This document shows, in pieces, positions 4,700-49,100 of a stretch of 64,000 bases of DNA. The notes under the pieces are model-generated. The model had not been told where the DNA came from, searched no databases, and saw only the letters and a list, made by a program, of their open reading frames with translations. The position numbers and the translations under genes are program-made. Source of the DNA: a virus; IMG/VR virus record IMGVR_UViG_3300042484_001802; one strand, written 5' to 3'. How positions within the stretch are numbered: the first letter of the stretch is position 1; every line of letters starts with the position of its first letter.

Positions 4700-4727
4700 T
4701 AATATTTATATTTATAAAAAGTAAAAT

Positions 4728-16751: not shown

Positions 16752-17486
16752 ATGAATTTAACAGTTAAACATAAGAAACCGTATTCAATTGTTCCATTAG
16801 ACAAATACAATATTTGTAAATACACTGCAAACCCTGTAATGAATGAAAAATCTTACACGTTATTTGTTGATGTTAAAATAAATAAAGATGAGTGTGATAA
16901 AGAAGCTGGAATAATTGTTAGACCAGGTATGCACGCTGGGTTTTTATTTGCACAACCTAATCTTCTAAAGTTTGGTTTCTGGTTTTTTAAAAATGATGAG
17001 CCAATTTATAAAGAGGTTTTCAAATTATTAACTGACGATGATTTTGATGAACATTTGTTTTGTGTAGCAACCGATGACGCAGATACAAAGATTATAAAAG
17101 TATACGTTAATAGCAATTTAATTGGTGAGATTGATTACAGTGAATATGATAGAAAACACAGCTACGTTGGTACACCTTATTATTTTGGTGTCGCTAATCC
17201 ATTCTTAGTTGCTAGACCTTTTGATTACTATGGTTCGTTTAATTATAGATTTGCTGGGTTATTGGATATGATTGTTGAGGATATCGAGGAATTAAAACAA
17301 ATTCATGAACACGTCACAGTACACCCAAGATTGGAGTACAACATATTCAAAGAAGATTACAAGTATAAACCAAATTTTGTTTTTTACTTTGATTTTGAAA
17401 ACCAAAGTAACTACAAGGTTTGGGATGTTTCAGAAAACAATAATTTTCTATGTAAGATTTTAGATAGAGACAATAATTTAATTTAA
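16752..17486 (+). CDS. Stand-alone LamG-like protein (likely start 16752)
   Basis: KVYVN, PYYFG, VFYFDFEN...KVWDVSENNN; resembles the GT7 inserts. Confidence 0.5.
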   Translation: MNLTVKHKKPYSIVPLDKYNICKYTANPVMNEKSYTLFVDVKINKDECDKEAGIIVRPGMHAGFLFAQPNLLKFGFWFFKNDEPIYKEVFKLLTDDDFDEHLFCVATDDADTKIIKVYVNSNLIGEIDYSEYDRKHSYVGTPYYFGVANPFLVARPFDYYGSFNYRFAGLLDMIVEDIEELKQIHEHVTVHPRLEYNIFKEDYKYKPNFVFYFDFENQSNYKVWDVSENNNFLCKILDRDNNLI

Positions 17487-22402: not shown

Positions 22403-23179
22403 ATGAATACATTAGTTGAAAATGGTTACATAATTGAAGATGCTAAAGATTTACTATCTGAAGAAGATTTTAAAGAACTAGATGGTTTATGTGATGCTAT
22501 AAGTGTCTCCGAAAAAAAACATACAAAATTTTATCAATTTGAATATTGTTTAACAAAAGAAGACGTAAATTATTTTGGTTTAACTGGCGAAAATTCTAGT
22601 GTTAAATTTTCAGATAGAATTGATGTTAGTGATAGTACAGAAAAAAAATTTTCAGTTGAAATGAAAAAAAAACTGATTCAAAAATACTTTGATTCGGTGC
22701 AAACATATGCTGAAAGTTTTTATGAAATAGATAGGTTTTCTTATTTATGTGATAAAATGTCACATGCAATTGCTGACAAATATTATTCACATATTTTTAA
22801 TTTAGATAATTTTAGAAAAAAAGAAATACACAGCACCACTCAAAGGATTGCAACATATGATGAAGATTGTCATATTGCTAAACATAAAGATGGTTTTAAC
22901 AATAAAAGGTTATTTGTTATTTTAGTATACCTAAATAAAGAATGGGAAGATACCAATGGGGGAGATTTAGTTATTTACTCTAAAAACAATGATAAAATTT
23001 CATTAACACCAAAAGCCCCAAGCGTTTGTGTTTTAGATTTCACAAAAAATAATTTAGAACATGAGGTGTTAAAAGTTATAGATGGTACAAGATACACATA
23101 TGTGTCTTTTTATGAGGTGTCAGAATCTTTAATGATAACAGACGAATGGAAAAAACACAAGATAAAAAAAATGATATAA
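22403..23179 (+). CDS. 2OG-Fe(II) oxygenase
   Basis: HKD...YLNKEW...GGDL...HEV..V..G.RY. Confidence 0.85.
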   Translation: MNTLVENGYIIEDAKDLLSEEDFKELDGLCDAISVSEKKHTKFYQFEYCLTKEDVNYFGLTGENSSVKFSDRIDVSDSTEKKFSVEMKKKLIQKYFDSVQTYAESFYEIDRFSYLCDKMSHAIADKYYSHIFNLDNFRKKEIHSTTQRIATYDEDCHIAKHKDGFNNKRLFVILVYLNKEWEDTNGGDLVIYSKNNDKISLTPKAPSVCVLDFTKNNLEHEVLKVIDGTRYTYVSFYEVSESLMITDEWKKHKIKKMI

Positions 23180-24363
23180 TGACAGAAACATTTTGCCCAC
23201 TACCATTTATTCATTTTAACGCATATCCAGACAAACAAATTAAACCTTGTTGCTACTCGCAATCATTTTTTGAAAATACCACATTAAAAAATCAAGATAT
23301 TGTTACCGCTTTTAATTCTGAAGAATACCAGAAACTACGAAATGATTTACTAAATGGCGTTGAACACAAGTTCTGTGATGTTTGTTGGAAAACAGAAAAA
23401 AATGGTGGAGAAAGCCAAAGAAATAAATGGTCTAATTTTTATAAAGATAAAAAAGAAGACATTATCCAAAAAACAAAAAAAGATGGGTATTATCGACCTG
23501 ACTTTGTTTCTTTAGATTTAAGACCTTCAAATATATGTAATTTCAAGTGTAGAACATGTACTCCAGATTTTTCAACAACCTGGATTGATGAAAGAACTAA
23601 ATTTAGGGAAATTATGGGCAATGAGTTTGAAGATTATAAAACTCAAATTACATCATTTGACATTCCACAAGAAAATATTGATAACCTAGAGAAAATCTAT
23701 TTTGCTGGTGGTGAACCATTGTATATGGATGAGATGTATAAGTTTCTAGACAAGATTAAAAATAAACAAAATACTGAAGTGTATTTTAATACTAATTTTA
23801 GTATTGTAAAACACAAAAATCAATCGGTTTTTGATTTATTTAAAGGGTTTAAAAACGTACACTTTGCAATATCTTGTGATGGTTATGGTGCCATTGGTGA
23901 ATATGTTAGAACTAATTTTAAGTGGGATGCGTTTAAAGAAAATGTTAACATGTTAACCAACATTATAAACAACGGAACTAATTTTTCATATGGTTTTCAA
24001 TATACCTCATCATTATTAAATTGTTTTCATTTTTTTGATTTTAGGGATAAATTGTACGAGTTGAATTTTATCTCAAACGACAATCAATTACAATTTGGGG
24101 TGGCGGAGTATCCGTTTTGGTTAAATCCAGCACATTTTGATTTAAAAGATGAGGTTATTAGGTATTTTGAAAGTAAAATAGATACAATACAAAATAGTTC
24201 GTTGCGCACTGAATTGAACAATTACATGATTTACTTGAAAACCTTCAACGACCCTCATTTTTATGCCTTGCATTATTTAAAAAATTTCATTAAATTAGGT
24301 GATGAGACCAATAACACGGTTTTACCTGAAGAATTAACATATCTAAAAAAATATCTTATATGA
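23179..24363 (+). CDS. Radical SAM protein with twitch-like Cys cluster (likely start 23179)
   Basis: FCPLPF...PCC...CDVC; CNFKCRTC; FAGGEP. Confidence 0.9.
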   Translation: MTETFCPLPFIHFNAYPDKQIKPCCYSQSFFENTTLKNQDIVTAFNSEEYQKLRNDLLNGVEHKFCDVCWKTEKNGGESQRNKWSNFYKDKKEDIIQKTKKDGYYRPDFVSLDLRPSNICNFKCRTCTPDFSTTWIDERTKFREIMGNEFEDYKTQITSFDIPQENIDNLEKIYFAGGEPLYMDEMYKFLDKIKNKQNTEVYFNTNFSIVKHKNQSVFDLFKGFKNVHFAISCDGYGAIGEYVRTNFKWDAFKENVNMLTNIINNGTNFSYGFQYTSSLLNCFHFFDFRDKLYELNFISNDNQLQFGVAEYPFWLNPAHFDLKDEVIRYFESKIDTIQNSSLRTELNNYMIYLKTFNDPHFYALHYLKNFIKLGDETNNTVLPEELTYLKKYLI

Positions 24364-29160: not shown

Positions 29161-29192
29161 GTTTTTTGATTTTTTTTAGTTATATTAGTAAT

Positions 29193-29627
29193 ATGATATA
29201 CTGGTTAACAGGCCAACCTGGCGCAGGAAAAACAACCTTAGCAAAATACTTAGTGGAATACTTTCCGAAAGATGAGGTTACTCACATCGATGGAGATGAC
29301 TTAAGGGACATCTTTAAAAACAAGGACTATTCCATAACAGGTAGAAGATTAAACATCCAAAGAGCACAATACATTGCACAATTCATGCATAGTAAGGGAC
29401 ATAATGTTATTGTGTCCTTAGTTTCACCATATCGAGACCAAAGAGAAGAATTTAAATTTAGCACATCGGTTGTTGAGATTTATGTACACACCACAGAAGA
29501 TAGAGGTAGGAACCAATTTCATGTTGAGGAATATGAACCACCATTAGAAAATTTTATAGACATAGATACAACAATAAAAAACGAAACAGATTCGTATTTT
29601 GAACTATTAAAAAAATTATCATTATGA
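29193..29627 (+). CDS. cysC: Adenylyl-sulfate (APS) kinase, compact form
   Basis: IYWLTGQPGAGKTT, IDGDDLR, SLVSPYRDQR, EIYV, YEPP. Confidence 0.85.
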   Translation: MIYWLTGQPGAGKTTLAKYLVEYFPKDEVTHIDGDDLRDIFKNKDYSITGRRLNIQRAQYIAQFMHSKGHNVIVSLVSPYRDQREEFKFSTSVVEIYVHTTEDRGRNQFHVEEYEPPLENFIDIDTTIKNETDSYFELLKKLSL

Positions 29628-30139
29628 TGACAAATGGTATTATCATTGACAATTTTTTAGACAATGTTGATGAAATAAGAGAGGAAGCGTTGTTATTAGA
29701 TTATACTAAATCATTACCCGAAAGTGAAGGTTGGAAAGGGTTTAGGTGTTTAAATGGAAACATGTTGACACTTGATTTACATGAAAAAATTAAAGAAAAG
29801 TTAGTTGAAACTAATATAAAATTTGATAATTGTGATATGAGGTGTTTTTTTCATTATACATTGGAAGAACATAATGTAGGTAAAAAAAACACACATCGTG
29901 ATTATGGTTTTGATTATGCTGGGGTTTTATACCTAGCACCAAACCCACAAAAAAATTCAGGTACGTCTTTTTATAATGATTTAGGTGAAGAAACCGGTTA
30001 CTTGGAAAACGTTTATAATAGATTAGTAATTTATCCAGCGAATGAGTTACACTCTTTAAAAGAATCTTTTGGTAACGATATTAATAATGGTAGATTAACT
30101 TTCACGTTTTTTTGTAAATTAAAAAATAACAATATATGA
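29624..30139 (+). CDS. 2OG-Fe(II) oxygenase-like protein (DUF6445-type)
   Basis: IIDNFLDN.DEIRE.AL...HRD..YAGVLYL.P....GTSFY...NVYNRLVIY....H....G....GRL. Confidence 0.75.
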   Translation: MMTNGIIIDNFLDNVDEIREEALLLDYTKSLPESEGWKGFRCLNGNMLTLDLHEKIKEKLVETNIKFDNCDMRCFFHYTLEEHNVGKKNTHRDYGFDYAGVLYLAPNPQKNSGTSFYNDLGEETGYLENVYNRLVIYPANELHSLKESFGNDINNGRLTFTFFCKLKNNNI

Positions 30140-30516
30140 GTAAGAAATATGCAATGTACATCGGTAGGTGGCAAAATTGGCATAAAGGTCACGAATGGTT
30201 GATCCGTCAACAAATGGACCAAGGTAAGAACATATGGGTAGCTATTAGGGATGTTGAAGTTGACGAGAACAACCCTAAAACAGCTCAAGAGGTTTTTCAA
30301 ATGTTAATCCAGGAGCCCTTTTTTAACGAGAATTTTGATAAGATTTTACTATCAATTATCCCAGATATTGAATCGGTTAATTATGGTAGAGGTGTTGGTT
30401 ACGATGTTATTTATCACGAGCCACCGGCGGATGTTGCGGTAATAAGCGGAACTGCTATTAGAACTGGACATATGACCGCTGATGGCTCAATAAAATATGA
30501 CCAAACAAAAGGATAA
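30136..30516 (+). CDS. Minimal HxGH nucleotidyltransferase (cytidylyltransferase superfamily)
   Basis: IGRWQNWHKGH; PDIESVNYGRGVGY; ISGTAIR. Confidence 0.75.
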   Translation: MSKKYAMYIGRWQNWHKGHEWLIRQQMDQGKNIWVAIRDVEVDENNPKTAQEVFQMLIQEPFFNENFDKILLSIIPDIESVNYGRGVGYDVIYHEPPADVAVISGTAIRTGHMTADGSIKYDQTKG

Positions 30517-30731
30517 TGATTGTAGAACGTAAACGACATATAGCCAAAACAATATCCTATCGTATTATAAGCACTATAATAGGTTTCCTTATAATGTGGT
30601 GGGTTAGTGGATCTATTAAGATTGGTGCAACCTTTGGTGTGGCTGAATTAGTATACAAACCTATTCAATATTACCTACATGAAAGGATTTGGTATAGATG
30701 GATAAAGTTCGGGGTAAAAGATAAAAAATAA
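30516..30731 (+). CDS. DUF2061-like small membrane protein
   Basis: RHIAKTISYRII...YYLHERIW. Confidence 0.8.
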   Translation: MIVERKRHIAKTISYRIISTIIGFLIMWWVSGSIKIGATFGVAELVYKPIQYYLHERIWYRWIKFGVKDKK

Positions 30732-30740
30732 GTATTTATA
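30731..30740 (+). promoter_or_regulatory. Putative late-promoter motif AGTATTTATA heading the 30.7-39.8 kb cassette
   Basis: Same motif as before the two fibre genes (815 and 46084). Confidence 0.45.
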
Positions 30741-30755
30741 TATAAATTAGAAAAT

Positions 30756-32243
30756 ATGAGAACAGTATTGATAGGATCAGATTTTATGTACGATAAGGAT
30801 GGTAATTTAAGACCCATTGAAATAAACACTGCGGTTGGTTGGGATGGTCCCGAAAAAGTCGAGGAAGATGTTGATTGTTTGGATTTAACAAATTTATATC
30901 AATTTGTTGAGGATAATAATTTCCAAACGATACATTATGTTGGTGATATTGGTCCATTACACGTGACATTAATGACACATTATAGCGGAAGTTCTGTTAC
31001 ATATGAATTTCACGGGGTTGGTGCAACTTCCATTACAGTTCCATACATAGAAGATACTGAAACGACTTTAATTATTAGGAGTGCATATGACACAACAGCA
31101 CTAGTGGATGACACATATTGTAAGGATAAAATAGAGTTCATGAATCTAATTAAAGATTCTTCTTTTGGCTCCCAATTTGCGTACATTGACGAAAATAACA
31201 CATTGGTGTCAAATATCACATCTATAAATGATAACGGCGAACACCCTAATTTTATTTTAAAATCTAGATTTCCAGGTTATGACAAGTTAATTTATCCAAA
31301 ATTTTTTAAAGTTACAACTCAATCTGAATTAGACACTATAATAGCAAATAATGTTACAAGTGAGTATTTTTTAATGGAGTACCTATGTAACGTCAATAAA
31401 CTATGGGAAGGGCATTTAACGGTGATAAGAAGTTTAAACATTTTAGTCCCACCAAATTTAGAATCAATTCAAATTGGCCAATATACAAAATTGAATCAAA
31501 ATATGTTACTAGATAATGTGACATATGATTCAATCACATTTGAAGTATATTCAGATTTCAAAGAGAGTTATAGTACAAACCCACCTACCGGTTTTCAACC
31601 TAAATTATTGAATACTGATATGGTAGAAATGGCAGATGGGACATTAAAAACTGCATTGGATTTACAAATTGGGGACGTTATTAAAACAATTGAAATACCA
31701 AATGAAAAGGGAACTAGTATAGATAGTTACGTATCCTCCGAATTTGGGCTTACGTACGATACGTTGGTAAGTGATGCAATATATACAACTAATGTCGTAA
31801 CCAAAAAACAAAAAGTAAACACCTTAACTTTTATAAATGAATTAACATTTGAAGATGCTAGTACCTGGGAAGATACTATGGGCTCAAAGTATTTGATAGA
31901 CAGAGAAGGTGTGGTTATGTTTAAATCATTATGGGGGATATTTCCAGGAGATGTGGTTATATTATTAGATACTACTGATGATAATATAAATTTTGTAAGA
32001 AAAACAGTTACATCAAATATTCAAGTTAAGAGAGTGTTCTCTGGTTGGTTTATTTCAGTTGATACCGCTATGTTATTTTTAACTAAAACAGCCGGGTCAA
32101 CCAATAACGAATCATATGTTTCAATTGAACATAACCTTATATCTTGTCCCAATTGGACATGTACAAACGCTTGCTGGTCCATCTGTCCATCATGTCCGAA
32201 GTATATGTCTTGTCAATCTAATTACTGTTTTCCAGTATGTTAA
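30756..32243 (+). CDS. Circularly permuted ATP-grasp-like domain + Hint domain + C-terminal 8-Cys peptide
   Basis: aa1-282: DFMYDKDGNLRPIEIN, FILKSR, YFLMEY. aa283-460: MVEMADGTLK..DLQIGDVI...VSIEHN. aa461-495: Cys-rich tail. Confidence 0.65.
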   Translation: MRTVLIGSDFMYDKDGNLRPIEINTAVGWDGPEKVEEDVDCLDLTNLYQFVEDNNFQTIHYVGDIGPLHVTLMTHYSGSSVTYEFHGVGATSITVPYIEDTETTLIIRSAYDTTALVDDTYCKDKIEFMNLIKDSSFGSQFAYIDENNTLVSNITSINDNGEHPNFILKSRFPGYDKLIYPKFFKVTTQSELDTIIANNVTSEYFLMEYLCNVNKLWEGHLTVIRSLNILVPPNLESIQIGQYTKLNQNMLLDNVTYDSITFEVYSDFKESYSTNPPTGFQPKLLNTDMVEMADGTLKTALDLQIGDVIKTIEIPNEKGTSIDSYVSSEFGLTYDTLVSDAIYTTNVVTKKQKVNTLTFINELTFEDASTWEDTMGSKYLIDREGVVMFKSLWGIFPGDVVILLDTTDDNINFVRKTVTSNIQVKRVFSGWFISVDTAMLFLTKTAGSTNNESYVSIEHNLISCPNWTCTNACWSICPSCPKYMSCQSNYCFPVC

Positions 32244-32272
32244 TAACCTTCTTAAATAAATTTAAATAAAAA

Positions 32273-32362
32273 ATGGCAACAATTATATCAAATACAGACA
32301 TCAATACTTTAAACACCACAATTACAACAATAGGTAGTTTAATTGTAACAGCAAACAGTTAG
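32273..32362 (+). CDS. 29-aa Thr/Ile/Asn-rich micropeptide (absent from the ORF track)
   Basis: MATIISNTDINTLNTTITTIGSLIVTANS; A-rich leader; fills the gap between two genes. Confidence 0.6.
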   Translation: MATIISNTDINTLNTTITTIGSLIVTANS

Positions 32363-32385
32363 TATAAAATCTAATAAGTTATTTT

Positions 32386-32919
32386 ATGATACATTTCATA
32401 CCAAATATTCTTACTAAGGATGAGTGTGAATACTTAACGAATCAATTTGATTTCGAAAGAAAATATCAAATCTCGGCGGATAATGAATATACTGGCACCA
32501 ATATATCATATGGGTTTGCCCCTTCATTTGCGTTTAATACCTATTTAAATAAATTAAAATCAAAAGTGTTAGAATATAACAATAATTTTGATGATTTATT
32601 CAATGTAAACACATTTGTTAGGGAATATATGAACACCTCAATGTTAAAAAAACATTTAGATAGAAAAGACATTAGTGTTACTATGTCTATATGTTTAGAA
32701 TCCACAATAAATAAAGAATGGCCGTTATGTGCGGAAATCGGAAATAAGGAATATTGTTTCAACACAAATATTGGTGACGGTATTTTATTATTTGATGCGG
32801 ATAAAATCACACATTGGAGGGAACCCTTAATATGTCTGGAGAAAGAAAGAGTTGTCCAATTTTTTTTACATTGGAAACCTTCTGATTACGTCGCAAAAAA
32901 AACAAAATCATTATTATAA
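32386..32919 (+). CDS. 2OG-Fe(II) oxygenase
   Basis: REY....LKKHLDR...SVTM.....WPL...GD...HWREP...QFFLHW. Confidence 0.8.
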   Translation: MIHFIPNILTKDECEYLTNQFDFERKYQISADNEYTGTNISYGFAPSFAFNTYLNKLKSKVLEYNNNFDDLFNVNTFVREYMNTSMLKKHLDRKDISVTMSICLESTINKEWPLCAEIGNKEYCFNTNIGDGILLFDADKITHWREPLICLEKERVVQFFLHWKPSDYVAKKTKSLL

Positions 32920-32930
32920 AAAAATAAATT

Positions 32931-33515
32931 ATGCCATTTACATATACAATAGAGTCAACCTTTTTAACAAAAGAAGAATGTGATTTAATATTAGATTTTT
33001 CATTAAAAGAATTAAAATTAGTACCATCGGAAATTCTTACCAATTACACCGATGGTGGCGACGTTAATACCGATATTAGAAAATCAAATCAAGTATTTTA
33101 CCCCTATTATAAAAAATTTCCATTTTTATTAGAAAAAATGAGTAAATTATTAAATCAACATATTTTTGTTAAAGGGTTCGATTTAGATTTTAAAGAAAGT
33201 CAATTTCAGTTTACTGAGTATCATCCAGGCGGACATTTTGGCTGGCATAGAGATGCTCATGGAAAAAAAATAACGGATTATGACAGGTATTGTTCATTAG
33301 TGATACAACTAAATGATGAGTATGGAGAGGGTGATTTACAAATAAAAGATGATCAGAATGGGACCCTAACAGTTGAAAAGGGTACAGGAAATTTGATATT
33401 ATTTTTATCAAATATTGAACATAGAGTAGTGCCAGTAAAAAGTGGGATTAGATATACACTAGTTAATTGGGTGAAATTAAAACAAAAAAAAGATTATAAA
33501 AAAACACTTTTATAG
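32931..33515 (+). CDS. 2OG-Fe(II) oxygenase (PKHD/prolyl hydroxylase-like)
   Basis: QFTEY..G.HF.WHRD...SLVIQLND.Y..GDL...HRV.PV.SG.RY.LV.W. Confidence 0.9.
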   Translation: MPFTYTIESTFLTKEECDLILDFSLKELKLVPSEILTNYTDGGDVNTDIRKSNQVFYPYYKKFPFLLEKMSKLLNQHIFVKGFDLDFKESQFQFTEYHPGGHFGWHRDAHGKKITDYDRYCSLVIQLNDEYGEGDLQIKDDQNGTLTVEKGTGNLILFLSNIEHRVVPVKSGIRYTLVNWVKLKQKKDYKKTLL

Positions 33516-33516
33516 C

Positions 33517-33834
33517 ATGAAAATAAATTTTAAAGAAATATTAAATGCTTGGTATAATGTTATAAATCACACACCAGAACAAAAGGAATTAGCAGATAAA
33601 AGATTCGCTATATGTTTAGAATGCCCCTCTAAAATAGAAATTTTAAAAGACAAGAAATGGCTTTTTAAATGTAAAGAATGTGGTTGTCCTTTAGGCGCAA
33701 AAGTTTACACTGAAACAACATACCTTACTAAAGACAAATCTTGTCCACTTGATAAATGGAAAGAAGTTGAAATGGAATTTATGAGTAAACATAGTGACAC
33801 GATTAAATATAAAACTAAAAAAACATTTCTTTAG
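33517..33834 (+). CDS. Small Cys-rich zinc-binding protein (DUF6171-like)
   Basis: RFAICLECP...CKECGCPL.AK......CPLDKW. Confidence 0.7.
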   Translation: MKINFKEILNAWYNVINHTPEQKELADKRFAICLECPSKIEILKDKKWLFKCKECGCPLGAKVYTETTYLTKDKSCPLDKWKEVEMEFMSKHSDTIKYKTKKTFL

Positions 33835-33836
33835 TT

Positions 33837-34526
33837 ATGGGTTATTTAATAAACGATGACCTTTTATGGGTGATCACCCCTAAATGTGCTAGCGACTCAA
33901 TAGAAACTGCATTATTAAACTCAAGTTTAAATTTAAAAAAATATAGCGAGCACTTCGAACAACATACCCATATGCATATACCACTAAACGAGTGCTTAAC
34001 TAAGTTTGGTAAAAAAGAAACAATATGTATCACTAGAGATTGGTTTGAAAAATGGTTAAGTTCATTAAATTTTATTTGGGATTATATAGAATTATATAGT
34101 GAATATGAACCAGTATGTAAATGGGAGGACATCAATAATAATGTTATTTATGAGATATTTGATAGCGAATTTGTAAATAAACTTTACTCATTAAATCATA
34201 CCTCTAATGAAGAATGTTTTTTGAAATTATTAAAAAGGAACACCGAAGATATTATAAACGTACCCAAAGAAATTTATGGAATAATAATAACTCTAATATC
34301 TGAACGCTATTGGAAAAGTAATGTAAAATGCACATATGAATTTGATATTAAAAAATTAGACGATTTTGTTAATTTCATTGAAAATAGGTTTGGTGAAAAA
34401 TTAATAATAGAAAAGAAAAACGTATCTACAAAAAGACCAAATAAATTAATAGTAAATAATGAATTAAAATCTTTTGTTTGGGAAAAATTTGAAAAAATAT
34501 TTGAAAAAAGAAATCAATTAATTTAA
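33837..34526 (+). CDS. Sulfotransferase-like protein
   Basis: 5'-PSB-like PKCASDSI and 3'-PB-like ITRDWFEKWLS. Confidence 0.65.
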   Translation: MGYLINDDLLWVITPKCASDSIETALLNSSLNLKKYSEHFEQHTHMHIPLNECLTKFGKKETICITRDWFEKWLSSLNFIWDYIELYSEYEPVCKWEDINNNVIYEIFDSEFVNKLYSLNHTSNEECFLKLLKRNTEDIINVPKEIYGIIITLISERYWKSNVKCTYEFDIKKLDDFVNFIENRFGEKLIIEKKNVSTKRPNKLIVNNELKSFVWEKFEKIFEKRNQLI

Positions 34527-34527
34527 T

Positions 34528-35196
34528 ATGGCAACTATTTGGACATTTGGGGATTCATTTACTTCTGGAGACGGGTGTGTAGAAAACCTAAGAATTAGAG
34601 ACGGCGATTTTAGATATTATAACGAATATAAAAAACTAGGTAGTGATATATGGCCTAATTTATTAGGTAAAACTTTAGGATATGACGTAAAAAATCTAGG
34701 AAAAAGTGGTGCAAGTAATGACTATATTTTAGATTCTATTATTGATAATTTTAACATGATAGAACCAAATGATGTGGTGATAATTGAAAAAACATTTTAC
34801 CAAAGATTTGATATACCTAAATCAACGGGTGATGGGTTTCAAACAATTTACGCTGAAGGACTTTATCAACTTTCTATTGATTTAAAAATGGAAAGATATT
34901 CTTGTGAAGATAAATTAGAAATTGAAACGGTATTAAATTATGGTGTTTTATTTTCCGACAATAAATTATTTAAAGAAAGACAAGATAAACGATTTGAATT
35001 TATACAAGCACAATTAAATAATAAAACAGATAAAATATTAATATGGGATGTTTTAGATTTTTTAGACGGTAAAATTGAAACGATAGGTCAACACACTGAG
35101 GGTAATATAAAAGATTATCATTTTAGTTTTAATGGTCATAAAAGATTTAGCGAATTTCTATACAAAAAATTATATATTAAACCCTCATTAGTTTAA
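34528..35196 (+). CDS. SGNH/GDSL-like hydrolase or acyltransferase
   Basis: FGDSFT, NLGKSGASNDYI, DYHFSFNGH. Confidence 0.7.
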   Translation: MATIWTFGDSFTSGDGCVENLRIRDGDFRYYNEYKKLGSDIWPNLLGKTLGYDVKNLGKSGASNDYILDSIIDNFNMIEPNDVVIIEKTFYQRFDIPKSTGDGFQTIYAEGLYQLSIDLKMERYSCEDKLEIETVLNYGVLFSDNKLFKERQDKRFEFIQAQLNNKTDKILIWDVLDFLDGKIETIGQHTEGNIKDYHFSFNGHKRFSEFLYKKLYIKPSLV

Positions 35197-35928
35197 ATGT
35201 TAGTCGATAAAAAATTTATTTTTATAAGTTTACCAAGATGTGCATCAACATCATTTATGATTACGTGTGTTAAAAACAAAATACCAATAGAGCATTTCAA
35301 CTCAAACCATGATAATCAGTTGATTAAAATCAATGAATGGGAAAAAATGGGTAATGAAGAATTGGCAGATAGATTAGTACATGCACACGAACCATTACAT
35401 ATGTTACAAGAAAAATTTGGGACGAGCAACCAAATTATTTCAATAAGACGAAATAAGTACGATAGATTTTTATCTTTATGGAAACACATCATAGACGAAT
35501 TACACAGAATTAACAAACTTGATATTGCTGACATCTTTTCAAAATTAACAACTAATGATCTGTTTGATAATATTAAACCAAATGACATTTATAATTCGGA
35601 AAATAGAGTTAAAGTTATTGATAATTTTTTATCTAGGTTAGAAATTTCAAAAGAAGAATCTTACACTAAAAATATGTTAGATATATTGTTTATGCCAGTA
35701 GTTGAACTTACAAATAACGACCCAAATATTATCTGGTTTGATATTAACAGTTTGAGAGATTTAGAAAATTGGGTGTCAAAAAAACTAAATAGAGATTTTA
35801 AAATGGAAAAAATAAATTCAAGTAAACATTTTAATTCAGTAATGGAGAACGATGATAATTTTAAACAGAAATATGATAATCTTTATAAAGAATTTGACCA
35901 AAGAAAAACAACTAAAACATTATTGTAA
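35197..35928 (+). CDS. Sulfotransferase-like protein
   Basis: FIFISLPRCASTSF; IRRNKYDRFLSLW; KINSS. Confidence 0.7.
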   Translation: MLVDKKFIFISLPRCASTSFMITCVKNKIPIEHFNSNHDNQLIKINEWEKMGNEELADRLVHAHEPLHMLQEKFGTSNQIISIRRNKYDRFLSLWKHIIDELHRINKLDIADIFSKLTTNDLFDNIKPNDIYNSENRVKVIDNFLSRLEISKEESYTKNMLDILFMPVVELTNNDPNIIWFDINSLRDLENWVSKKLNRDFKMEKINSSKHFNSVMENDDNFKQKYDNLYKEFDQRKTTKTLL

Positions 35929-37097
35929 TGGAAATTCAATTTTGGTATAGCGATATTTTACCAAATACAAATATTAGAAATTCAATCGAAAAAATAGATA
36001 GTGACATCTTATTTAAAAATATCCACACCGATAAGGTAGATGTTACAAAATTAAATTTTTTATTTTTTTTGTTAGAAACTGAATGGACTAATTCCGATAT
36101 CCCAAACATAGCGTATACTCATTCTAGTGAATTTATTGAATTACTAATTAAATTACAATCTGAAAATTTCTATTTTATGTGTAATAATTCTGGGGAAGCC
36201 GAACTTTGGGTGGATAATTTATCCTTGAATTTTTTTAATTTGTTAAAAAAAAATAAAATTGATTTTAACAGATTAATAATTGTAAATAACGATTCATCTA
36301 AAATTGGTATAGGTAAAACAAAATATGGGGATTTTATATTAAACACCTGTTTTTTTCCTAATTTCTTTTTATCTACCTATGAGCATTTAAAGTCATATGT
36401 AACTGAATTAAACCCTAACACCATACCTGATAAAAAATTCTTATGTTTAAATAGAAGAATGGGTTATGAAAAATATAAATTAATCGAGAGGTTATATCAT
36501 ATGGGGTTGTTAAATGACACCAGATTTTCTTGGGTAAAAAATAGCACGAATAAAAATCTGTTAAATAAAGAATTACTTAATGAATTAAACATAGATGTTG
36601 ATAACTTTAACCCTATTCAGTTAGAAGATGATGTAATGTATGGTGCTGATTTAGTTATGGAAAAGTATCTTTACACCATAAACCCCAAATGGTATTATAA
36701 AAGTAAAGTTAATATTATATTGGAAACAATGCTATACCCAAATTCAATTCATCTGACAGAAAAAACCTGGAAAGCAATTTATTTAGGTGTCCCGTTTGTT
36801 ATATATTCACCATCTAAACACTATCTTAAAACCTTAAGGGATATGGGATTCAAGACATTTAATTCTGTGATTAATGAGGATTATGATGAGATGCTAGGTA
36901 AAGATAAAATAACACAAGTTATAAAAAGCGCTGAAGAACTGGCTAGTATCTATGACACCCCCAAAGTATTAGATATATGTAGATTTAACCAAGAATTATA
37001 TTTTAATTTTCAACACAGAAAAAAAATATATAATGAGTTTTTTTTAAATAAAATTTGTGATGTTAAAAACTTAACAATTCCTAAAACATTAATTTAA
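35928..37097 (+). CDS. Putative GT-B/GT10-like protein (paralogue 3)
   Basis: KKFLCLNR, IILET...LTEKTWKA...PF...LRDMGFKTF..VINEDYD. Confidence 0.5.
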   Translation: MEIQFWYSDILPNTNIRNSIEKIDSDILFKNIHTDKVDVTKLNFLFFLLETEWTNSDIPNIAYTHSSEFIELLIKLQSENFYFMCNNSGEAELWVDNLSLNFFNLLKKNKIDFNRLIIVNNDSSKIGIGKTKYGDFILNTCFFPNFFLSTYEHLKSYVTELNPNTIPDKKFLCLNRRMGYEKYKLIERLYHMGLLNDTRFSWVKNSTNKNLLNKELLNELNIDVDNFNPIQLEDDVMYGADLVMEKYLYTINPKWYYKSKVNIILETMLYPNSIHLTEKTWKAIYLGVPFVIYSPSKHYLKTLRDMGFKTFNSVINEDYDEMLGKDKITQVIKSAEELASIYDTPKVLDICRFNQELYFNFQHRKKIYNEFFLNKICDVKNLTIPKTLI

Positions 37098-38147
37098 ATG
37101 GGTAATAAAATTGATTTAAAAAATTATACGTGTAGTGTGCCATTTACATCATTAGAAATACATAACAATGTTTGTTTTGTGTGCTGTCCATCCTGGTTAC
37201 CAAACAAAGTAGAACTTAGTGAAATTCCATTAAAAGATGTTTATAATAGCGAACCAATTATTGATATAAGAAACTCGATATTAGATGGTTCATTTAGATA
37301 TTGTAGTCAAGAGCTTTGTCCTTATTTAAGTAAATTAGTGAAGTATGGTGCGGAATCTGGGCCAGTCACTTTAAAATCAAATTCAAATGTTAATAGCCCT
37401 ATTGTAAAAAATAACGCACCAGATTATTTGATGATGAATTTTGATAGAACATGTAACTACAAATGTCCATCATGTAGAGTTGATTTAATAGTTGAAAATA
37501 GTGAGGGTATAAAACGTGTAGAAAAAACAATAGAGGAGATTGATAATCACTACTCGAAATATGTTAAAACCCTATATATTACTGGATCAGGGGATCCGTT
37601 TGTTTCTGTCGGATTCAGAAATTATCTAAGAAATTTTAACCCTAAAAAATACCCAAACTTAAATTCCATACACCTACACACAAATGCGTCTATGTGGAAT
37701 AAAGAAATGTGGGATAGTATGCCAAACATACACGGATATGTCCACTCTTGTGAAATTAGCATCGACGCTGGTACAAAAGACACCTATGAAAATAAAACCA
37801 GGTTGGGTGGTAAATGGGATAATTTAATTGATAATTTAAAATTCATAAGCACTCTACCAATTTCAATTAAAACATCATTTGTGGTTCAAGATTCCAATTA
37901 CATGGAAATGGGTATTTTTTACAACTTAATGTACTCAATATTTGGTAAAAGAGTAAATGTGTTTTTTGGTAAGATAACTAATTGGGGGACATTTTCAGAA
38001 GGTGAATTTAAATTAAAACAAGTATGGGATACGGAACATCCAGAACATGAGTTATTTAAAAAAGAGTTTAATAAAGTATGGAAAAATGAAAACCTTTTTC
38101 ATAATTTATATGAGTTTATTGACAACACAAATAAAACTTTAATATAG
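37098..38147 (+). CDS. Radical SAM protein (close paralogue of 28039-29160)
   Basis: CSVPF...CCPSW; DRTCNYKCPSCR; ITGSGDPF; ISIDAGTKDTYENKTRL identical to the paralogue. Confidence 0.9.
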   Translation: MGNKIDLKNYTCSVPFTSLEIHNNVCFVCCPSWLPNKVELSEIPLKDVYNSEPIIDIRNSILDGSFRYCSQELCPYLSKLVKYGAESGPVTLKSNSNVNSPIVKNNAPDYLMMNFDRTCNYKCPSCRVDLIVENSEGIKRVEKTIEEIDNHYSKYVKTLYITGSGDPFVSVGFRNYLRNFNPKKYPNLNSIHLHTNASMWNKEMWDSMPNIHGYVHSCEISIDAGTKDTYENKTRLGGKWDNLIDNLKFISTLPISIKTSFVVQDSNYMEMGIFYNLMYSIFGKRVNVFFGKITNWGTFSEGEFKLKQVWDTEHPEHELFKKEFNKVWKNENLFHNLYEFIDNTNKTLI

Positions 38148-38708
38148 ATGAGAATTTTAATACTATCACATACAAGATGTGGTTCTACCACATTATGTAA
38201 ATGGATATCAAAAGAATTGAATTTTGAAGTAGATTATGATCATTACGATGCTAACACATTTAATTCAATTTTCATTAAAAATAATATAATAAAAAAAATT
38301 GTTATCGAAGAATACAATCCACCAAATGAAGTTATTGAAAAATTTGATAAAGTTATTTGTTTAAGTAGGGAAAATAATATTGACAGTGCCATAAGTTTTA
38401 TTAATGCTGATAACAAAAGCAGGTGGCACGACATATATGAAATAACAAATGAGTGGATTGAAGATAATAAAAATAAAATAATAGAAACTGTTTACAAATA
38501 TGAACAATTAAAAACCTTATTAAAAAATAAAGATTTATTTCAAATAACGTATGAAAATATGTATATTAATAAAATAGACGTTAATAGAGTTATTAGTTAT
38601 TTAAACATTGAAAACCCAAAACATTTGGATATGCTTGATTATGATAAAAAATATAGAAAAGACACATATACTTTAACACATGATTTTAAGAGAAAAAATA
38701 TCATTTAG
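38148..38708 (+). CDS. Stf0-like sulfotransferase
   Basis: ILILSHTRCGSTTL; LSRENNIDSAIS; ITYE. Confidence 0.65.
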   Translation: MRILILSHTRCGSTTLCKWISKELNFEVDYDHYDANTFNSIFIKNNIIKKIVIEEYNPPNEVIEKFDKVICLSRENNIDSAISFINADNKSRWHDIYEITNEWIEDNKNKIIETVYKYEQLKTLLKNKDLFQITYENMYINKIDVNRVISYLNIENPKHLDMLDYDKKYRKDTYTLTHDFKRKNII

Positions 38709-39210
38709 TAAAGATGAGTGTGATTACATAATAAATTTATCCAAAGAGTTGGATGAACTTAAACCATTTGGTTATGATGACAATGTTAATAAAGAAAAAA
38801 TAACAATTAGATATTTTGTTTGGGTTATCAATAGAAACAATAAAACCCAATGGATATTTGATAAAATTCAAACGTATTTTATAAATAAAACTAATATAAA
38901 GATAAAAAAAGAATTAGATAAAATATATATACACAAATATGACACCGGCCAACAATTTGAAAAACATGCTGACACATATTATAAAACACAAATACACAAT
39001 GTAGGGGTATGTTTAAACAATGATTATGATGGAGGTGAATTTGTTTTATATAATCCAGAAGAACAATTACCAAAAGAAACGGGTAACATATATACTTTCC
39101 CTAGTCAAAGAATACATGAAGTAAAAAAAATAATAAAGGGTGAAAGGTGGAGCATTATTGGATTTTTACATATTGATAATTTAGATTTCCCTAAAAAATT
39201 ACTAATATGA
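38680..39210 (+). CDS. 2OG-Fe(II) oxygenase
   Basis: KY..G..F..HAD...LN.DYDGGEF...HEVK.I.KGERWS. Confidence 0.85.
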   Translation: MILREKISFSKDECDYIINLSKELDELKPFGYDDNVNKEKITIRYFVWVINRNNKTQWIFDKIQTYFINKTNIKIKKELDKIYIHKYDTGQQFEKHADTYYKTQIHNVGVCLNNDYDGGEFVLYNPEEQLPKETGNIYTFPSQRIHEVKKIIKGERWSIIGFLHIDNLDFPKKLLI

Positions 39211-39764
39211 AAATTGGAATAACAGGACATTCTAACGGAATTGGAAATGACATTTATTCAAATTTAATAAAAGAATATGATGTTATAGGATTTAGTAGAA
39301 GTAATGGTTTTGATATTAAAAATACGGATAAAATTATAGAACAATTGGATGATTGTGATATTTTTATAAACAACGCTTACGAAGGAAACTATCAAACAAT
39401 ATTATTTGAATTAATTTTTGATAAATGGAAATTTTTACCAAAAACAATTATTAATATGAATAGCAGTTGTGTGTATCATTCATCCGATTGGTCGCCAGAA
39501 TATGCAAATAATAAAAAAGAGTTAAAAGAAGTATCTTTAAATGCGATTAGAAATAATAAAAATAAAAAAGTTAGGGTCATAAATTTATATCCATCCACCT
39601 TATCAACTCATATGGGGTTTGAAAGTTTAAATAAATTAGATACTGAAAATCTTGCAAAAATTATAAATTGGTTAATAAAACAACCACAAGAAATAGAAAT
39701 TAGAGAGATGAGTATATATTGTACAACATTGGAGAAAGAATTTAAAACAAATAAATTAATATGA
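39207..39764 (+). CDS. Short-chain dehydrogenase/reductase, compact
   Basis: ITGHSNGIG, FINNA, YANNK (YxxxK). Confidence 0.75.
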   Translation: MKIGITGHSNGIGNDIYSNLIKEYDVIGFSRSNGFDIKNTDKIIEQLDDCDIFINNAYEGNYQTILFELIFDKWKFLPKTIINMNSSCVYHSSDWSPEYANNKKELKEVSLNAIRNNKNKKVRVINLYPSTLSTHMGFESLNKLDTENLAKIINWLIKQPQEIEIREMSIYCTTLEKEFKTNKLI

Positions 39765-40531
39765 AATCAATAAAATTTTGGAATAAAAGCGGATTCGATG
39801 TTGCAACTTATAAATGGAATTTATCAGAAAGACGTAATAAAACATTTAATGGCTCTGGTTCGGATGATAGTGAAACCAATACCTACACATATAATGAACT
39901 AGGATTCAGAGGTGATTCAATATACAAGGATGGTTTTAGAATTCTGTCTGTCGGTTGTTCACATACGGAAGGTGTGGGGGTAAATGACTGGGAAACTTGG
40001 CCGCATATATTTTCTAGGTTAATACCTAATGGTATTGATTTAAATGCTGGGTTTGGTGGTAGAAGTAATGATTACATTGCTAGGTGTATTGTGTCCTTAA
40101 TTGACACCTTTAGACCCAATCTGGTTAATCTAATGTACACATACCCCTCAAGAAAAGAATACTACAAGTTTAATGGGGATTTAGAGCCCTTTCATATGAC
40201 ACCCTGGGGATATTTCAAAGAAGATTCGGAAGGTGTTGATGAATACAAGGCAATCGCAAAGATAACCCATGATGAAAATGATTTGATTAATTGGTATAAA
40301 AATCATTTATTAATAACCAATTTCCTATCACTAAGAAAAATCCCATACACTTGGAATGGTTCGTTTCTAATGGATGATGTTATTTCAGATAAACATCGTT
40401 TTGATGGTGACTATGGCAACTTCAGAGAGTTTTCCGTTGACGGTAAACATGCAACAGGAAAACACAATGAAGAATATGCCAAAAATTTATATGACTTCAT
40501 TAAGAAAAACTTCCCAATATATATCCCTTAG
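39761..40531 (+). CDS. SGNH-like phage protein
   Basis: YNELGFRG, VGCSHTEG.G, NAGFGGRSNDYI, DGKH. Confidence 0.6.
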   Translation: MKSIKFWNKSGFDVATYKWNLSERRNKTFNGSGSDDSETNTYTYNELGFRGDSIYKDGFRILSVGCSHTEGVGVNDWETWPHIFSRLIPNGIDLNAGFGGRSNDYIARCIVSLIDTFRPNLVNLMYTYPSRKEYYKFNGDLEPFHMTPWGYFKEDSEGVDEYKAIAKITHDENDLINWYKNHLLITNFLSLRKIPYTWNGSFLMDDVISDKHRFDGDYGNFREFSVDGKHATGKHNEEYAKNLYDFIKKNFPIYIP

Positions 40532-46114: not shown

Positions 46115-49100
46115 ATGAATATATTTGACGCACACATATCGGGATCATTATCCGTATCAAGTTCAGCCGAAATTTCGGGTGATTTAAAAGTTTTAGGAAC
46201 AATTAGTGGTTCCTTTAGTGGTGATGGCTCTAATATCACAAACATCCCAGCGGGTGGTGTTGTTGGACTTAATTTAACACGAATAGCTGACGGTGCATCA
46301 ACAGCATCAATTTCAAATACAGATGGTTTAAGAATTAATACAAATTCAGAAATTACTGGTTCATTAATTATAACCGGTGATTTAATTATAAGTGGAACAT
46401 CTTTTAATGCCGCGACCTCAGGTACATCTGGCACATCAGGAACCTCAGGTACATCTGGAACCTCAGGGTCTTCAGGTTCAAGTGGCACATCTGGTACTAG
46501 TGGAACCTCAGGTTCAAATGGTAGTTCAGGCACGAGTGGTTCATCAGGTTCATCTGGAAGTTCAGGTACGTCAGGTACTAGTGGAAGTAGCGGTTCTTCA
46601 GGAACATCTGGTTCTTCGGGAACATCTGGTTCAAGTGGTAGTTCTGGAACTAGTGGAAGTAGTGGTTCTTCAGGAACCGCTGGAACATCAGGAACCTCAG
46701 GTTCAAGTGGTAGTTCTGGAACTTCAGGTTCTAGTGGATCTAGCGGAACCGCTGGTACAAGTGGCACATCGGGATCTTCTGGTTCTAACGGGTCCTCAGG
46801 TACTTCAGGAACGAGCGGTACATCAGGTTCTAGTGGAACATCAGGTTCATCAGGGTCTAGTGGAACTAGTGGTAGTTCTGGCTCATCAGGAACATCAGGT
46901 TCTAACGGGTCGTCAGGTACTTCAGGAACAAGCGGAACATCAGGTTCTTCAGGAACAAGCGGTTCATCAGGATCTAGTGGAACATCTGGGTCTTCAGGGT
47001 CAAGCGGAACATCAGGTTCTTCAGGAAGTTCAGGAACATCCGGAAGTTCAGGGTCTAGTGGTACAGCGGGGACATCAGGAACCTCTGGTTCTAGTGGATC
47101 TAGTGGATCTAGCGGAACCGTAACAATGAGCGGAACACAAGACAATGGTGTTCTAACACTTAATGGTTCCTCACCAAACGTAACTGCGGAAAATAATTTA
47201 AGATTTGATGGTTCACTTTTAACCGTTGTTGGTAACGAAACAATATCTGGTTCCTTAATTGTGACAAACAATTTTACAGTATTAGGTTCATCCTCAATAA
47301 CATACGTAACATCATCTCAATTAAGAGTTGAAGACAATATTATCACAGTAAACACTGCTAGCCCTGGATCTAGATTTGGTGGACTAGAAGTTCATGATTC
47401 AGGATCGGTTGGTATTGCTACTGGTTCAATTCTTTGGGATTCTGTTAACAATAGATGGATTTATCAAAACTCAAGTGAGGCGGGTTATGGTGGCGGTGTA
47501 CTATTGTCAGGTCCTAGAAGTTCTGGTTCACTAGGTAGTGAATTAACATTAACTAGTGGTAGAGTTGCAAAGTCAGCGGGCGGAGACCACTTAAATGATT
47601 CAAATATAACAGACAACGGTACAACCGTTTCGATAAATTCAAATACAGAAATCACTGGTTCATTAATTGTTACTGGTGATAAAATAACAGTAAAAGCGGT
47701 TGGTGGTGATGAGGGTGGTGAGATTTTATTAGGTAAAGCAGTAACCAATACAACACTTGTTGGTGATGGTGTTACTGTAGATATTTGGCAAAATAGATTA
47801 AGATTTTTTGAACAGGGCGGAACTGCTCGAGGTGCATATATTGATATCTCAAGTTTAGCGGCAGGTGTTGGTACCAACTTGGTTGGTGCTGGTTCATCAG
47901 GTACTTCTGGAACTAGTGGTACCTCTGGCACATCGGGTTCTAGTGGAACATCAGGATCTAATGGTTCGTCTGGTACGTCAGGTTCATCAGGAACAAGTGG
48001 TACAAGTGGTAGTTCAGGATCTAATGGTTCATCTGGCACGTCAGGTTCTTCAGGTTCTAGCGGAACATCGGGATCTAATGGTTCATCTGGTACGTCAGGA
48101 ACATCGGGTTCTAACGGATCTAGCGGAACCTCAGGTTCTTCAGGTTCAAGCGGAACATCTGGTTCATCTGGAAGTTCTGGTTCAAGTGGTACATCTGGTT
48201 CATCTGGTAGTTCGGGTTCATCAGGAACAAGTGGAAGTTCGGGAACATCGGGTTCTAACGGATCTAGCGGAACCTCAGGTTCTTCAGGCAGTTCAGGATC
48301 AAGTGGAACGTCAGGGTCTTCTGGTTCTAGTGGCACTTCGGGTACTTCAGGAAGCTCAGGAACGAGTGGATCTTCGGGTTCTAGTGGGTCTAGTGGAACA
48401 TCAGGTTCTAACGGATCTAGTGGTACGTCGGGTTCATCAGGTTCTAGCGGTTCTAGTGGAACATCAGGTTCTTCTGGTTCTAGCGGAAGTTCAGGAACAA
48501 GTGGATCTTCAGGGTCTAGTGGTTCAAGTGGAACCAGTGGTAGTTCGGGGAGTTCTGGCTCAAGTGGAACATCTGGGTCTTCAGGAAGTTCTGGTTCTAG
48601 TGGGTCTTCAGGAAGTTCAGGTACTTCTTTCGCCAATACTTTTAATATAAATCAAAATTTAGGAACAAGTAACTCGCCAACATTTGGTGGTTTAACAATT
48701 ACAGGTGGTGGTTCAGTTAGTACAACATTGACAGGTGCTAACGTTGGTGATTTATTGTATGCTTCAATTGCAGATAACGATTTTTTTAGATTAAGAGTTG
48801 GTGGTACCGCAACAAATGCCGGTTATGTTGAAATAGCAACTTCCGATGATGGTACAGAACCAATATATGTTAGACAATATACGGGTGTTTTTAGTAGTTT
48901 AACTAGGACTGCAACATTACTAGATGGTAGTGGTAACACATCATTTCCAGGTACAATTACAGCCCCAACATTCTCAGGAGCACTATCCGGAAACGCAACC
49001 ACTGCAACTACTGCGGGTAGTGCACCAAACGCTAGTAATTTAAACGCATCTTATGGTGTATCAACGGGTAATGGAAACGGATTAAAATTTTGGGGAGGTT

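Follow-up and report, generated by a model that had tools for sequence, protein, structure and literature searches.

What unites eleven consecutive phage genes whose products, drawn from several enzyme families, end in nearly the same four residues? We address this question in a stretch of 64,000 nucleotides from the IMG/VR virus record IMGVR_UViG_3300042484_001802 (the window, always meant at its full length). Its source is a large tailed phage with collagen-like tail-fibre genes at 860-4063 and 46115-49525 (PHROGs), between which lie about 40 kb of sugar-biosynthesis and modification genes (PHROGs, Pfam), hereafter the sugar island. On the + strand, positions 30733-40531 form a single, densely packed module led by a promoter-like motif. 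Its genes run head-to-tail: an open reading frame (ORF) of 495 amino acids (aa) at 30756-32243, which we call the hub; an ORF of 29 aa at 32273-32362, the micropeptide; and eleven genes at 32386-39764 that carry endings of the type K-[TS]-L-[IL]-COOH, the tag. Our reading, held tentatively and at somewhat less than even weight, is that this operon is a peptide maturation or conjugation system built around the hub, which makes or attaches a modified peptide.

A preliminary description made from the letters of the window had proposed a coupled run of Hint precursor, 29-aa micropeptide and eleven tagged genes, and the ORFs, the Hint fold, the endings and the spacers bear this out. Spacers within the run extend from a 29-nt overlap (-29) to +11 nt. 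The run and its immediate successor are given below, with the last four residues of each tagged product.

32386..32919, + strand: 177-aa protein, KSLL; resembles P4H-type oxygenases in an N-terminal motif only
32931..33515, + strand: 2-oxoglutarate (2OG)-Fe(II) oxygenase, KTLL; PF13640, E 1e-13, 52.4 bits against a cut-off of 27
33517..33834, + strand: Cys-rich zinc-ribbon-like protein, 105 aa, KTFL; from alignments, with weak DUF6171 similarity
33837..34526, + strand: sulfotransferase-like protein, 229 aa, NQLI; from a fold search with an AlphaFold (AF2) model
34528..35196, + strand: SGNH/GDSL-like protein, PSLV; sub-threshold Pfam GDSL matches
35197..35928, + strand: paralogue of the sulfotransferase-like family, KTLL; same BLAST family as 33837
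35928..37097, + strand: 389-aa protein, KTLI; 24-28% identity to the untagged sugar-island genes 18096 and 24874
37098..38147, + strand: radical SAM protein, KTLI; PF04055, 31.1 bits against a cut-off of 29.5, motif CNYKCPSC
38148..38708, + strand: P-loop protein, 186 aa, KNII; weak Stf0/Sulfotransfer_3/NodH hints only
38680..39210, + strand: 2OG-Fe(II) oxygenase, KLLI; PF13640, E 6e-11, 43.5 bits against a cut-off of 27
39207..39764, + strand: short-chain dehydrogenase (SDR)-like protein, NKLI; sub-threshold adh_short and SDR matches
39761..40531, + strand: SGNH-type protein, untagged here; GCS...GGRSND...H motifs, family consensus ending in LI

The family of the last gene is a cassette member that is usually tagged in other phages; the copy shown here ends about 10 residues early, without the tag. 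The counterpart of 38680 ends in KSLI in relatives that are 99% identical.

The tag is concentrated in the run. Its strict pattern was found in 9 of the 11 run genes, compared with 9 of about 390 ORFs outside the cassette in a complete related genome; in this 335.6-kb relative (L116-L132), 15 of 400 ORFs fit, six of the 15 within a 6-kb cassette. Among 398 non-run ORFs of the same phages, a tag-type ending was absent. After the hub, about 85% of the genes at positions +1 to +5 carried the tag; upstream of it, the figure was about 10%. In clades whose hub is less than 40% identical, the hub has tagged genes to either side, and the logo of the tag stays the same (K 54-62% at -3, T or S about 60% at -2, L 72-77% at -1, I or L 96-99% at the end). 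The residues are spelled by varying synonymous codons (Ser by TCA, AGT and TCG; Leu by TTA, TTG, CTA and CTT; Thr by ACA, ACT and ACC), including the unlinked Ser classes TCA and AGT, which indicates that selection on the tag acts at the protein level; a DNA-level origin was ruled out by this codon evidence. In the zinc-ribbon family, the linker varies in length before an unchanged ending.

Relatives outside the system are untagged. This holds for the sugar-island paralogues in the same window, for a zinc-ribbon homologue found next to lysis genes, and for the 2OG homologues of the cultured cyanophage S-MbCM6, which lie beside fibre genes and have quite different endings, and together these three cases indicate that the tag is system-specific. 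The zinc-ribbon homologue (L086, L097, L115) has neither linker nor tag, ends right after the fold and has no hub nearby; its neighbours are a 940-aa fibre-like protein on one side and small membrane proteins with a lysozyme-like gene on the other. In Synechococcus phage S-MbCM6 (L187, 28.9-32.7 kb), the untagged 2OG oxygenases come right after tail fibre genes and three Ser-rich 'sericin-like' genes, an arrangement that would fit fibre modification. Two sugar-island genes of the window show tag-like endings outside the run, the radical SAM gene 23146-24363 (LKKYLI) and 16752-17486 (244 aa, RDNNLI), and these may be chance or stray members of the system.

Short C-terminal addresses on unrelated proteins are well known, among them the peroxisomal signal PTS1 (SKL-COOH), class I PDZ ligands, the ClpX C-motif 2 and encapsulin cargo-loading peptides. 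The phage tag is like them in form, being a few residues at the free, flexible C-terminus of unrelated enzymes, but differs in sequence and is confined to one phage operon.

Whether hub and tag belong together was examined in IMG/VR, entered from three directions: the hub (36 loci from the protein search, 44-99% identity), the zinc-ribbon protein (>518 loci from its alignment, 80 fetched) and the sulfotransferase-like 229-aa family (63 loci), with about 160 loci fetched in all. The hub, the small ORF after it, the zinc-ribbon protein and the tagged run occurred together in nearly every locus long enough to judge, and practically everywhere the zinc-ribbon protein is a neighbour of the hub. Of 108 loci, every one had 2OG oxygenases (218 of 248 copies with the tag) and 95 had the 229-aa family (the tag on 107 of 107 copies); the P-loop family was present in 69, radical SAM in 55, SGNH in 50 and the 177-aa family in 39 (36 tagged); at least 22 families are at least 60% tagged. 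The enzyme set varies and the tag persists. The preliminary description had suggested a neighbourhood check on homologues of 30756, and tagged enzymes proved to flank these almost without exception. Uncultured aquatic phages carry the system in abundance: IMG/VR contains more than 760 clusters of the hub (at 90% identity) and over 500 loci with the zinc-ribbon protein. Neither the cassette nor the hub had a DNA or protein match among 50,697 deposited phage genomes (INPHARED), no close relative turned up in 185,579 prokaryote species genomes searched at close-relative sensitivity, and the literature yielded no published description of the layout of hub, micropeptide, zinc-ribbon protein and tagged enzymes.

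The cassette moves as a unit and not by local duplication, since its radical SAM proteins form one clade (Shimodaira-Hasegawa-like approximate likelihood ratio test 98) apart from the untagged sugar-island copies, and since it elsewhere adjoins Hsp20, peptide deformylase and other unrelated genes and occurs without any sugar island. A recent local duplication of the radical SAM gene was ruled out by the tree. The preliminary description had envisaged a separately acquired, self-contained module; the unrelated contexts and the radical SAM clade agree with this, while composition contributes little. The tagged run, at 26.3% GC, is indeed richer in A/T than its flanks (31.2% upstream, 32.5% downstream), as had been described, although the hub gene, at 32.3%, resembles the flanks. 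Of the families said to be duplicated upstream, radical SAM (28039, 37% identity, and 23146), 2OG (22403) and the 389-aa family (18096, 24874) have paralogues there, whereas the second SGNH-like gene lies downstream, at 39761. The label 'GT10-like' given to the 389-aa family found no support: with 11 family members, no Pfam or PDB profile match was obtained, the only trace being an ITEKTWK-like motif.

What, then, is the hub, around which the tagged genes gather? Its predicted parts and the gene that follows are as follows.

30756..31601, + strand: hub residues 1-282, predicted circularly permuted ATP-grasp amide ligase of the glutathione synthetase/GspS/YgiC type (model, Foldseek, VIA-align)
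31602..32135, + strand: hub residues 283-460, predicted Hint domain (model, structure alignment, profile against PDB)
32136..32243, + strand: hub residues 461-495 and stop, hypervariable tail with 8 Cys and a single Lys (disordered in the model)
32273..32362, + strand: micropeptide gene, 29 aa, ending in IGxLIVxANS-COOH (found directly after hub homologues)

The hub had no Pfam or NCBIfam match, and a PDB profile search with the alignment of its N-terminal domain gave nothing significant. We modelled it with AF2 on 52 homologues (predicted local distance difference test score, pLDDT, 88; predicted template modelling score 0.85; residues 463-495 not confident). Foldseek placed the N-terminal domain with glutathione synthetase (GS) and YgiC at E 2e-5 to 2e-4. 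VIA-align gave, over hub 1-278, the glutathione-synthetase-like 5OEU (Z 8.1), YgiC (7UKA, 7.9), T. brucei GS (2WYO, 7.8), GspS (2IO7, 7.5) and trypanothione synthetase (6.3), Z values that are middling, the query being the whole 495-aa model. Circularly permuted ATP-grasp amide ligases were the sole matches over these residues, and the permuted strand order of the GS/GspS/YgiC fold is present in the model; classical ATP-grasps (RimK, LysX/ArgX, TTLL) align from about residue 55 onward only. The RimK model had no match in four related phage genomes, and an ESM Atlas feature search with the hub yielded sub-0.9 leads to ATP-grasp and Hint clusters only. Residues D9, E22, N24, R108, D118, K169 and R225 are invariant among homologues, and D9, E22, N24, K169 and R225 are candidate metal- and ATP-binding residues that fit the pattern in sequence. 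The domain shares with GspS, E. coli YgiC/YjfC and eukaryotic GS the fold and permutation over hub 1-278 and a putative metal-site motif, D...ExN, at the N-terminus; it differs from them in being smaller, in lacking sequence-profile similarity and in being fused to a Hint domain and a peptide.

The Hint assignment comes from structure and profile alike. The best alignment was to BIL2 (6TMM; Z 15.3, root mean square deviation 2.5 A over 145 residues), many inteins scored Z 12-15, and the profile matched the mini-intein 2JMZ in the PDB (E 7e-6). Hub residue 283 aligns with intein residue 1 and residue 460 with the terminal Asn. All of the 52 sequences keep His459-Asn460. At position 283, the hub has K and its homologues H (18), K (17), I, L or, once, T, with Cys or Ser in none, and the +1 residue after Asn460 varies among A, L, P, V, I and G. 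A splicing intein was ruled out, there being no Cys or Ser at position 1 and no nucleophile at +1. With no nucleophile at 283 and His459-Asn460 retained, C-terminal cleavage by Asn cyclisation is predicted to be the only reaction chemically possible. Asn cyclisation is known to proceed uncoupled from the N-terminal step (PMC4031507). A-type bacterial intein-like (BIL) domains, BIL2 of Tetrahymena BUBL (6TMM/6Y75) and pretoxin-HINT (PF07591) share with the hub the Hint fold, the terminal His-Asn and a position just ahead of a variable C-terminal payload. They differ in that position 1 of the hub is Lys, His, Ile or Leu, which allows no thioester and no splicing, and in that the hub Hint domain is fused behind an ATP-grasp ligase and precedes either a Cys peptide of 25-55 aa or BACON repeats.

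The tail of the window hub is 35 aa long, and its sole Lys, K482, lies in the motif C-P-K. A set of 64 non-redundant tails was hypervariable, 25-55 aa long, with 6 or 8 Cys and few charged residues. Every one of the 64 contains at least one Lys and 52 exactly one, which sits in C-P-K or in a terminal P-K-L. A graspetide (omega-ester peptide) core was ruled out, as 44 of the 64 tails carry 0-1 acidic residues. The layout is that of a precursor of peptides that are ribosomally synthesised and modified after translation (RiPPs): hub 1-460 is conserved, the tail is hypervariable and tailoring-type enzymes are adjacent. Given this hypervariability, the kept Cys framework and the Lys in every tail, its properties would fit a core peptide or a modifier. 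In four relatives with hubs of 625-648 aa (L063, L067, L068, L072), a canonical mini-intein (Cys1 ... VHN) follows the Cys-rich tail, with only 2-8 residues beyond it and no +1 nucleophile; such a second intein could turn the tail C-terminus into a thioester. In some long hub homologues, the tail is replaced by up to 1,200 residues, and three proteins of 1129-1667 aa (P0076, P0078, P0085) carry BACON domains after Hint instead of the short Cys peptide.

The micropeptide directly follows every hub homologue and measures 24-47 aa in distant clades. Among 21 alleles, 1789 synonymous codon differences were counted vs 1032 nonsynonymous ones, and invariant residues are encoded by several synonymous codons, a pattern that indicates a genuine gene.

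The chemistry of the tagged enzymes was assessed by family and fold. The preliminary description had listed hydroxylation, sulfation, glycosylation, acylation and radical chemistry; family or fold evidence backs hydroxylation (2OG) and radical SAM chemistry, sulfation is probable, and for glycosylation and acylation matches were weak or lacking. It had also put forward a Cys-rich or Thr-rich peptide as the dedicated target and the tag as the source of specificity, both of which are candidates here. The AF2 model of 33837 (pLDDT 84, last 4 residues disordered) was used in an unbiased search of 48,161 chains, in which the top 12 were all sulfotransferases, although Foldseek was weak (E 0.09). 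The best matches were heparan sulfate 2-O- and 6-O-sulfotransferases (3F5F, Z 8.5; 5T03, Z 7.5), and tyrosylprotein sulfotransferase reached Z 4.2 only. Its sequence shows the motifs PKCAS and R67-x7-S75, with Pfam sulfotransferase matches below threshold. The P-loop protein 38148 is possibly a sulfotransferase too. The best NCBIfam match of radical SAM 37098 is a twitch-domain radical SAM, below threshold. For the 177-aa, 229/243-aa, 389-aa and 186-aa proteins, Pfam and NCBIfam gave no significant match, and PDB profile searches with the sulfotransferase-like, P-loop and 389-aa alignments gave nothing significant. For operons combining 2OG oxygenase, sulfotransferase and 3'-phosphoadenosine-5'-phosphosulfate (PAPS) synthetase, Iyer et al. 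2010 predict that a co-encoded protein is hydroxylated and then sulfated, and they report tandem dioxygenase arrays in cyanophages such as Syn9 (PMC2938197). Those operons resemble the cassette in their hydroxylate-then-sulfate logic, in phage-made activated sulfate and in tandem dioxygenases, but lack a ligase-Hint hub, a micropeptide, a zinc-ribbon partner and a shared C-terminal tag.

In the peptide maturation or conjugation system that we tentatively propose, the tag would be a flexible, system-specific address by which the enzymes gather at a single shared reader, for which the hub is the most plausible candidate. They would tailor the hub tail and/or the micropeptide, by hydroxylation and then sulfation with phage-made PAPS plus optional steps; Asn460 cyclisation would then free the tail, and the ligase would form one amide bond involving the single Lys of the tail or a peptide C-terminus. 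This reading is favoured by the finding, reached independently from three entry points, that hub, micropeptide, zinc-ribbon protein and tagged enzymes co-localise, and the enzyme families appear to be of protein- or peptide-modifying types. Several observations weigh against it. The 33837 model is nearest to carbohydrate sulfotransferases (HS2ST, HS6ST), with a low score for the tyrosylprotein enzyme; the SGNH, SDR-like and 389-aa families would be equally typical of glycan work; and in the window, collagen-like tail fibres bracket the sugar-biosynthesis island in which the cassette lies. Loci with a second intein after the tail still have tagged enzymes, and a minimal system (L102) consists of hub, micropeptide and zinc-ribbon protein with almost no tagged enzymes. 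The hub ligase, whose charged invariant residues are kept, is probably a working enzyme and not a mere docking site. Finally, the sole correlation found between an enzyme and the tail, which links the P-loop family to a tail Trp (18/2 vs 4/15; Fisher 1.7e-5), was not significant after allowing for relatedness (8 independent pairs, sign test p about 0.2).

RiPP precursors fused to their own enzyme are known in the borosin type. Like the phage operon, RiPP clusters of that type unite in one polypeptide an N-terminal part that is conserved and a C-terminal core that is hypervariable, and their co-encoded tailoring enzymes include radical SAM. Recognition would be inverted in the phage operon, with a tag on the enzymes instead of a leader read by RiPP recognition element (RRE) domains; release would be by Hint and not by a protease; and no known RiPP class marker is present here. 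If the tag is read by the hub, this would be a new pathway organisation, in which the enzymes' label of four residues confers the specificity in place of a substrate leader, and a crippled Hint domain does the releasing in place of a protease. The system would also give a testable case of virus-made modified or conjugated peptides, and portable tools could follow, namely a short tag for docking or ligation and a Hint module with C-terminal cleavage only.

An alternative that we consider unlikely, though worth stating in full, is covalent conjugation, in which the tag or the micropeptide C-terminus is the carboxylate substrate of the ligase and is isopeptide-joined to the tail Lys or joined to a Hint-freed amino end. 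In logic, this would be a phage system like ubiquitin, Pup or BUBL, in which the members of a defined enzyme set are coupled to a Cys-rich peptide. GS/GspS ligases are known to activate a peptide C-terminal carboxylate, and the hub N-terminal domain matches the GS/GspS/YgiC fold with its charged invariant residues retained. The most conserved features of the tag are its last two residues, at the free end; every tail offers at least one Lys and usually exactly one; a Cys1 intein after the tail, as in some relatives, would make a C-terminal thioester of the tail; and the nearest solved Hint domain, BIL2, comes from BUBL, in which a ubiquitin-like domain is conjugated to lysines. However, one hub would be consumed per conjugation, there is no obvious reason for attaching a knot peptide to enzymes, and Lys at tag position -3 is just 52-62% conserved. 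We likewise give a low probability to the specific form in which the tag itself is the carboxylate substrate, which would amount to virus-encoded protein-peptide conjugation, with a fast-evolving Cys peptide coupled by Hint cleavage and ATP-driven ligation, via its one Lys or its freed amino end, to more than 20 enzyme families. Such a system, if real, would follow a ubiquitin-like logic with entirely different components.

It is similarly doubtful that the tagged enzymes act on other substrates, namely collagen-like fibres, virion proteins or a glycan, with the hub only a neighbour or regulator and the tag addressed to other machinery, of host or phage, whether as a protease degron of the ClpX C-motif-2 type, as the ligand of a PDZ-like reader, or as a signal for packaging or for a compartment. 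Here, the cassette lies within the 40-kb sugar island flanked by collagen-like fibres, the modelled sulfotransferase-like fold appears closest to glycan sulfotransferases, and the promoter motif described below is common to morphogenesis genes. The tag is similar in form to class I PDZ ligands ([ST]-x-hydrophobic-COOH) and to the ClpX signal of the MuA type, which is basic-hydrophobic. The prediction of Iyer et al. names collagen-like or tail-collar proteins as substrates (PMC2938197). Against such substrates, the tag is tightly coupled to the hub over hundreds of loci, down to about 27% hub identity, the cassette is also found away from sugar or fibre genes, and the fibre-adjacent 2OG genes of cultured cyanophages lack the tag. 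A single hub-less context of the tagged sulfotransferase-like gene was seen, and there the hub may sit elsewhere on the genome; the two contigs concerned (L173, 94 kb, and L178, 44 kb) show no hub within 10 kb on either side of the gene.

A long shot, in our estimate, is peptide-scaffold synthesis, whereby the ligase would load an amino acid or amine on the micropeptide C-terminus in a LysW- or pearlin-like manner and the tagged enzymes would tailor the appended group. The micropeptide is short, universal and next to the ligase, its C-terminal part is conserved, and the enzyme set is variable and metabolite-like; yet micropeptide endings differ by clade (ANS, THS, KHLS, VTQ), and the Hint domain, the Cys tail and the tag would all go unexplained. 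That the ending is a functionless by-product of A/T-rich composition, translational coupling or a recombination scar at junctions is so improbable that we set it aside, for although the run has 26% GC and AAA, ACA, TTA and ATA are common codons, the ending is missing from the 398 non-run ORFs, its codons vary even between Ser classes, stop-to-start spacing varies from overlap to +11 nt, and the tag occurs on opposite-strand genes and on the last genes of runs.

The module is headed by TATTTATA, an 8-mer at 30733..30740 on the + strand, 16 nt before the hub ATG. The preliminary description had seen a motif copy ahead of the hub in the 10-mer AGTATTTATA; the 8-mer core recurs, whereas the exact 10-mer occurs once in the window with 0.83 copies expected by chance, and was ruled out as a meaningful repeat. 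In nearly all loci, TATTTATA is kept 12-30 nt upstream of the hub start. On the + strand of the window, 5 of 6 copies stand 4-18 nt ahead of gene starts (4728, 6203, 9994, 30756), with copies at 4703, 4709, 6192, 9978 and 30733 and no further + strand copy inside the cassette beyond 30733. In the complete 335.6-kb relative, 62 of 107 copies lie at most 60 nt upstream of a same-strand ORF (about 4% expected), and the genes so led include the large terminase, a tail fibre/baseplate protein and an HNH endonuclease. From this placement before starts, and from the terminase and fibre/baseplate genes among those led, we take TATTTATA for a promoter-like phage element, genome-wide and possibly of late type. 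Scans for sigma-70 promoters and terminators in the sequence gave matches at chance level only.

Directly upstream of the motif lies an untagged accessory block (29166..30731, + strand), recognised from Pfam matches, co-occurrence counts and locus architectures, with the following genes.

29166-29627, + strand: APS kinase (PF01583, E 2.5e-17)
29624-30139, + strand: DUF6445 protein (Pfam)
30136-30516, + strand: HxGH-type protein, 126 aa
30516-30731, + strand: DUF2061 membrane protein (Pfam)

The APS kinase directly upstream had been recognised in the preliminary description, and its Pfam match confirms it. The APS kinase, the 126-aa protein and the DUF2061 protein each adjoin the hub in about 40% of loci (41-47 of 108), and the block likely supplies PAPS. 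In the locus of the minimal system, seven tandem paralogues of about 121 aa, all beginning with MKEYKVKV, lie upstream of the hub (L102:431-3088).

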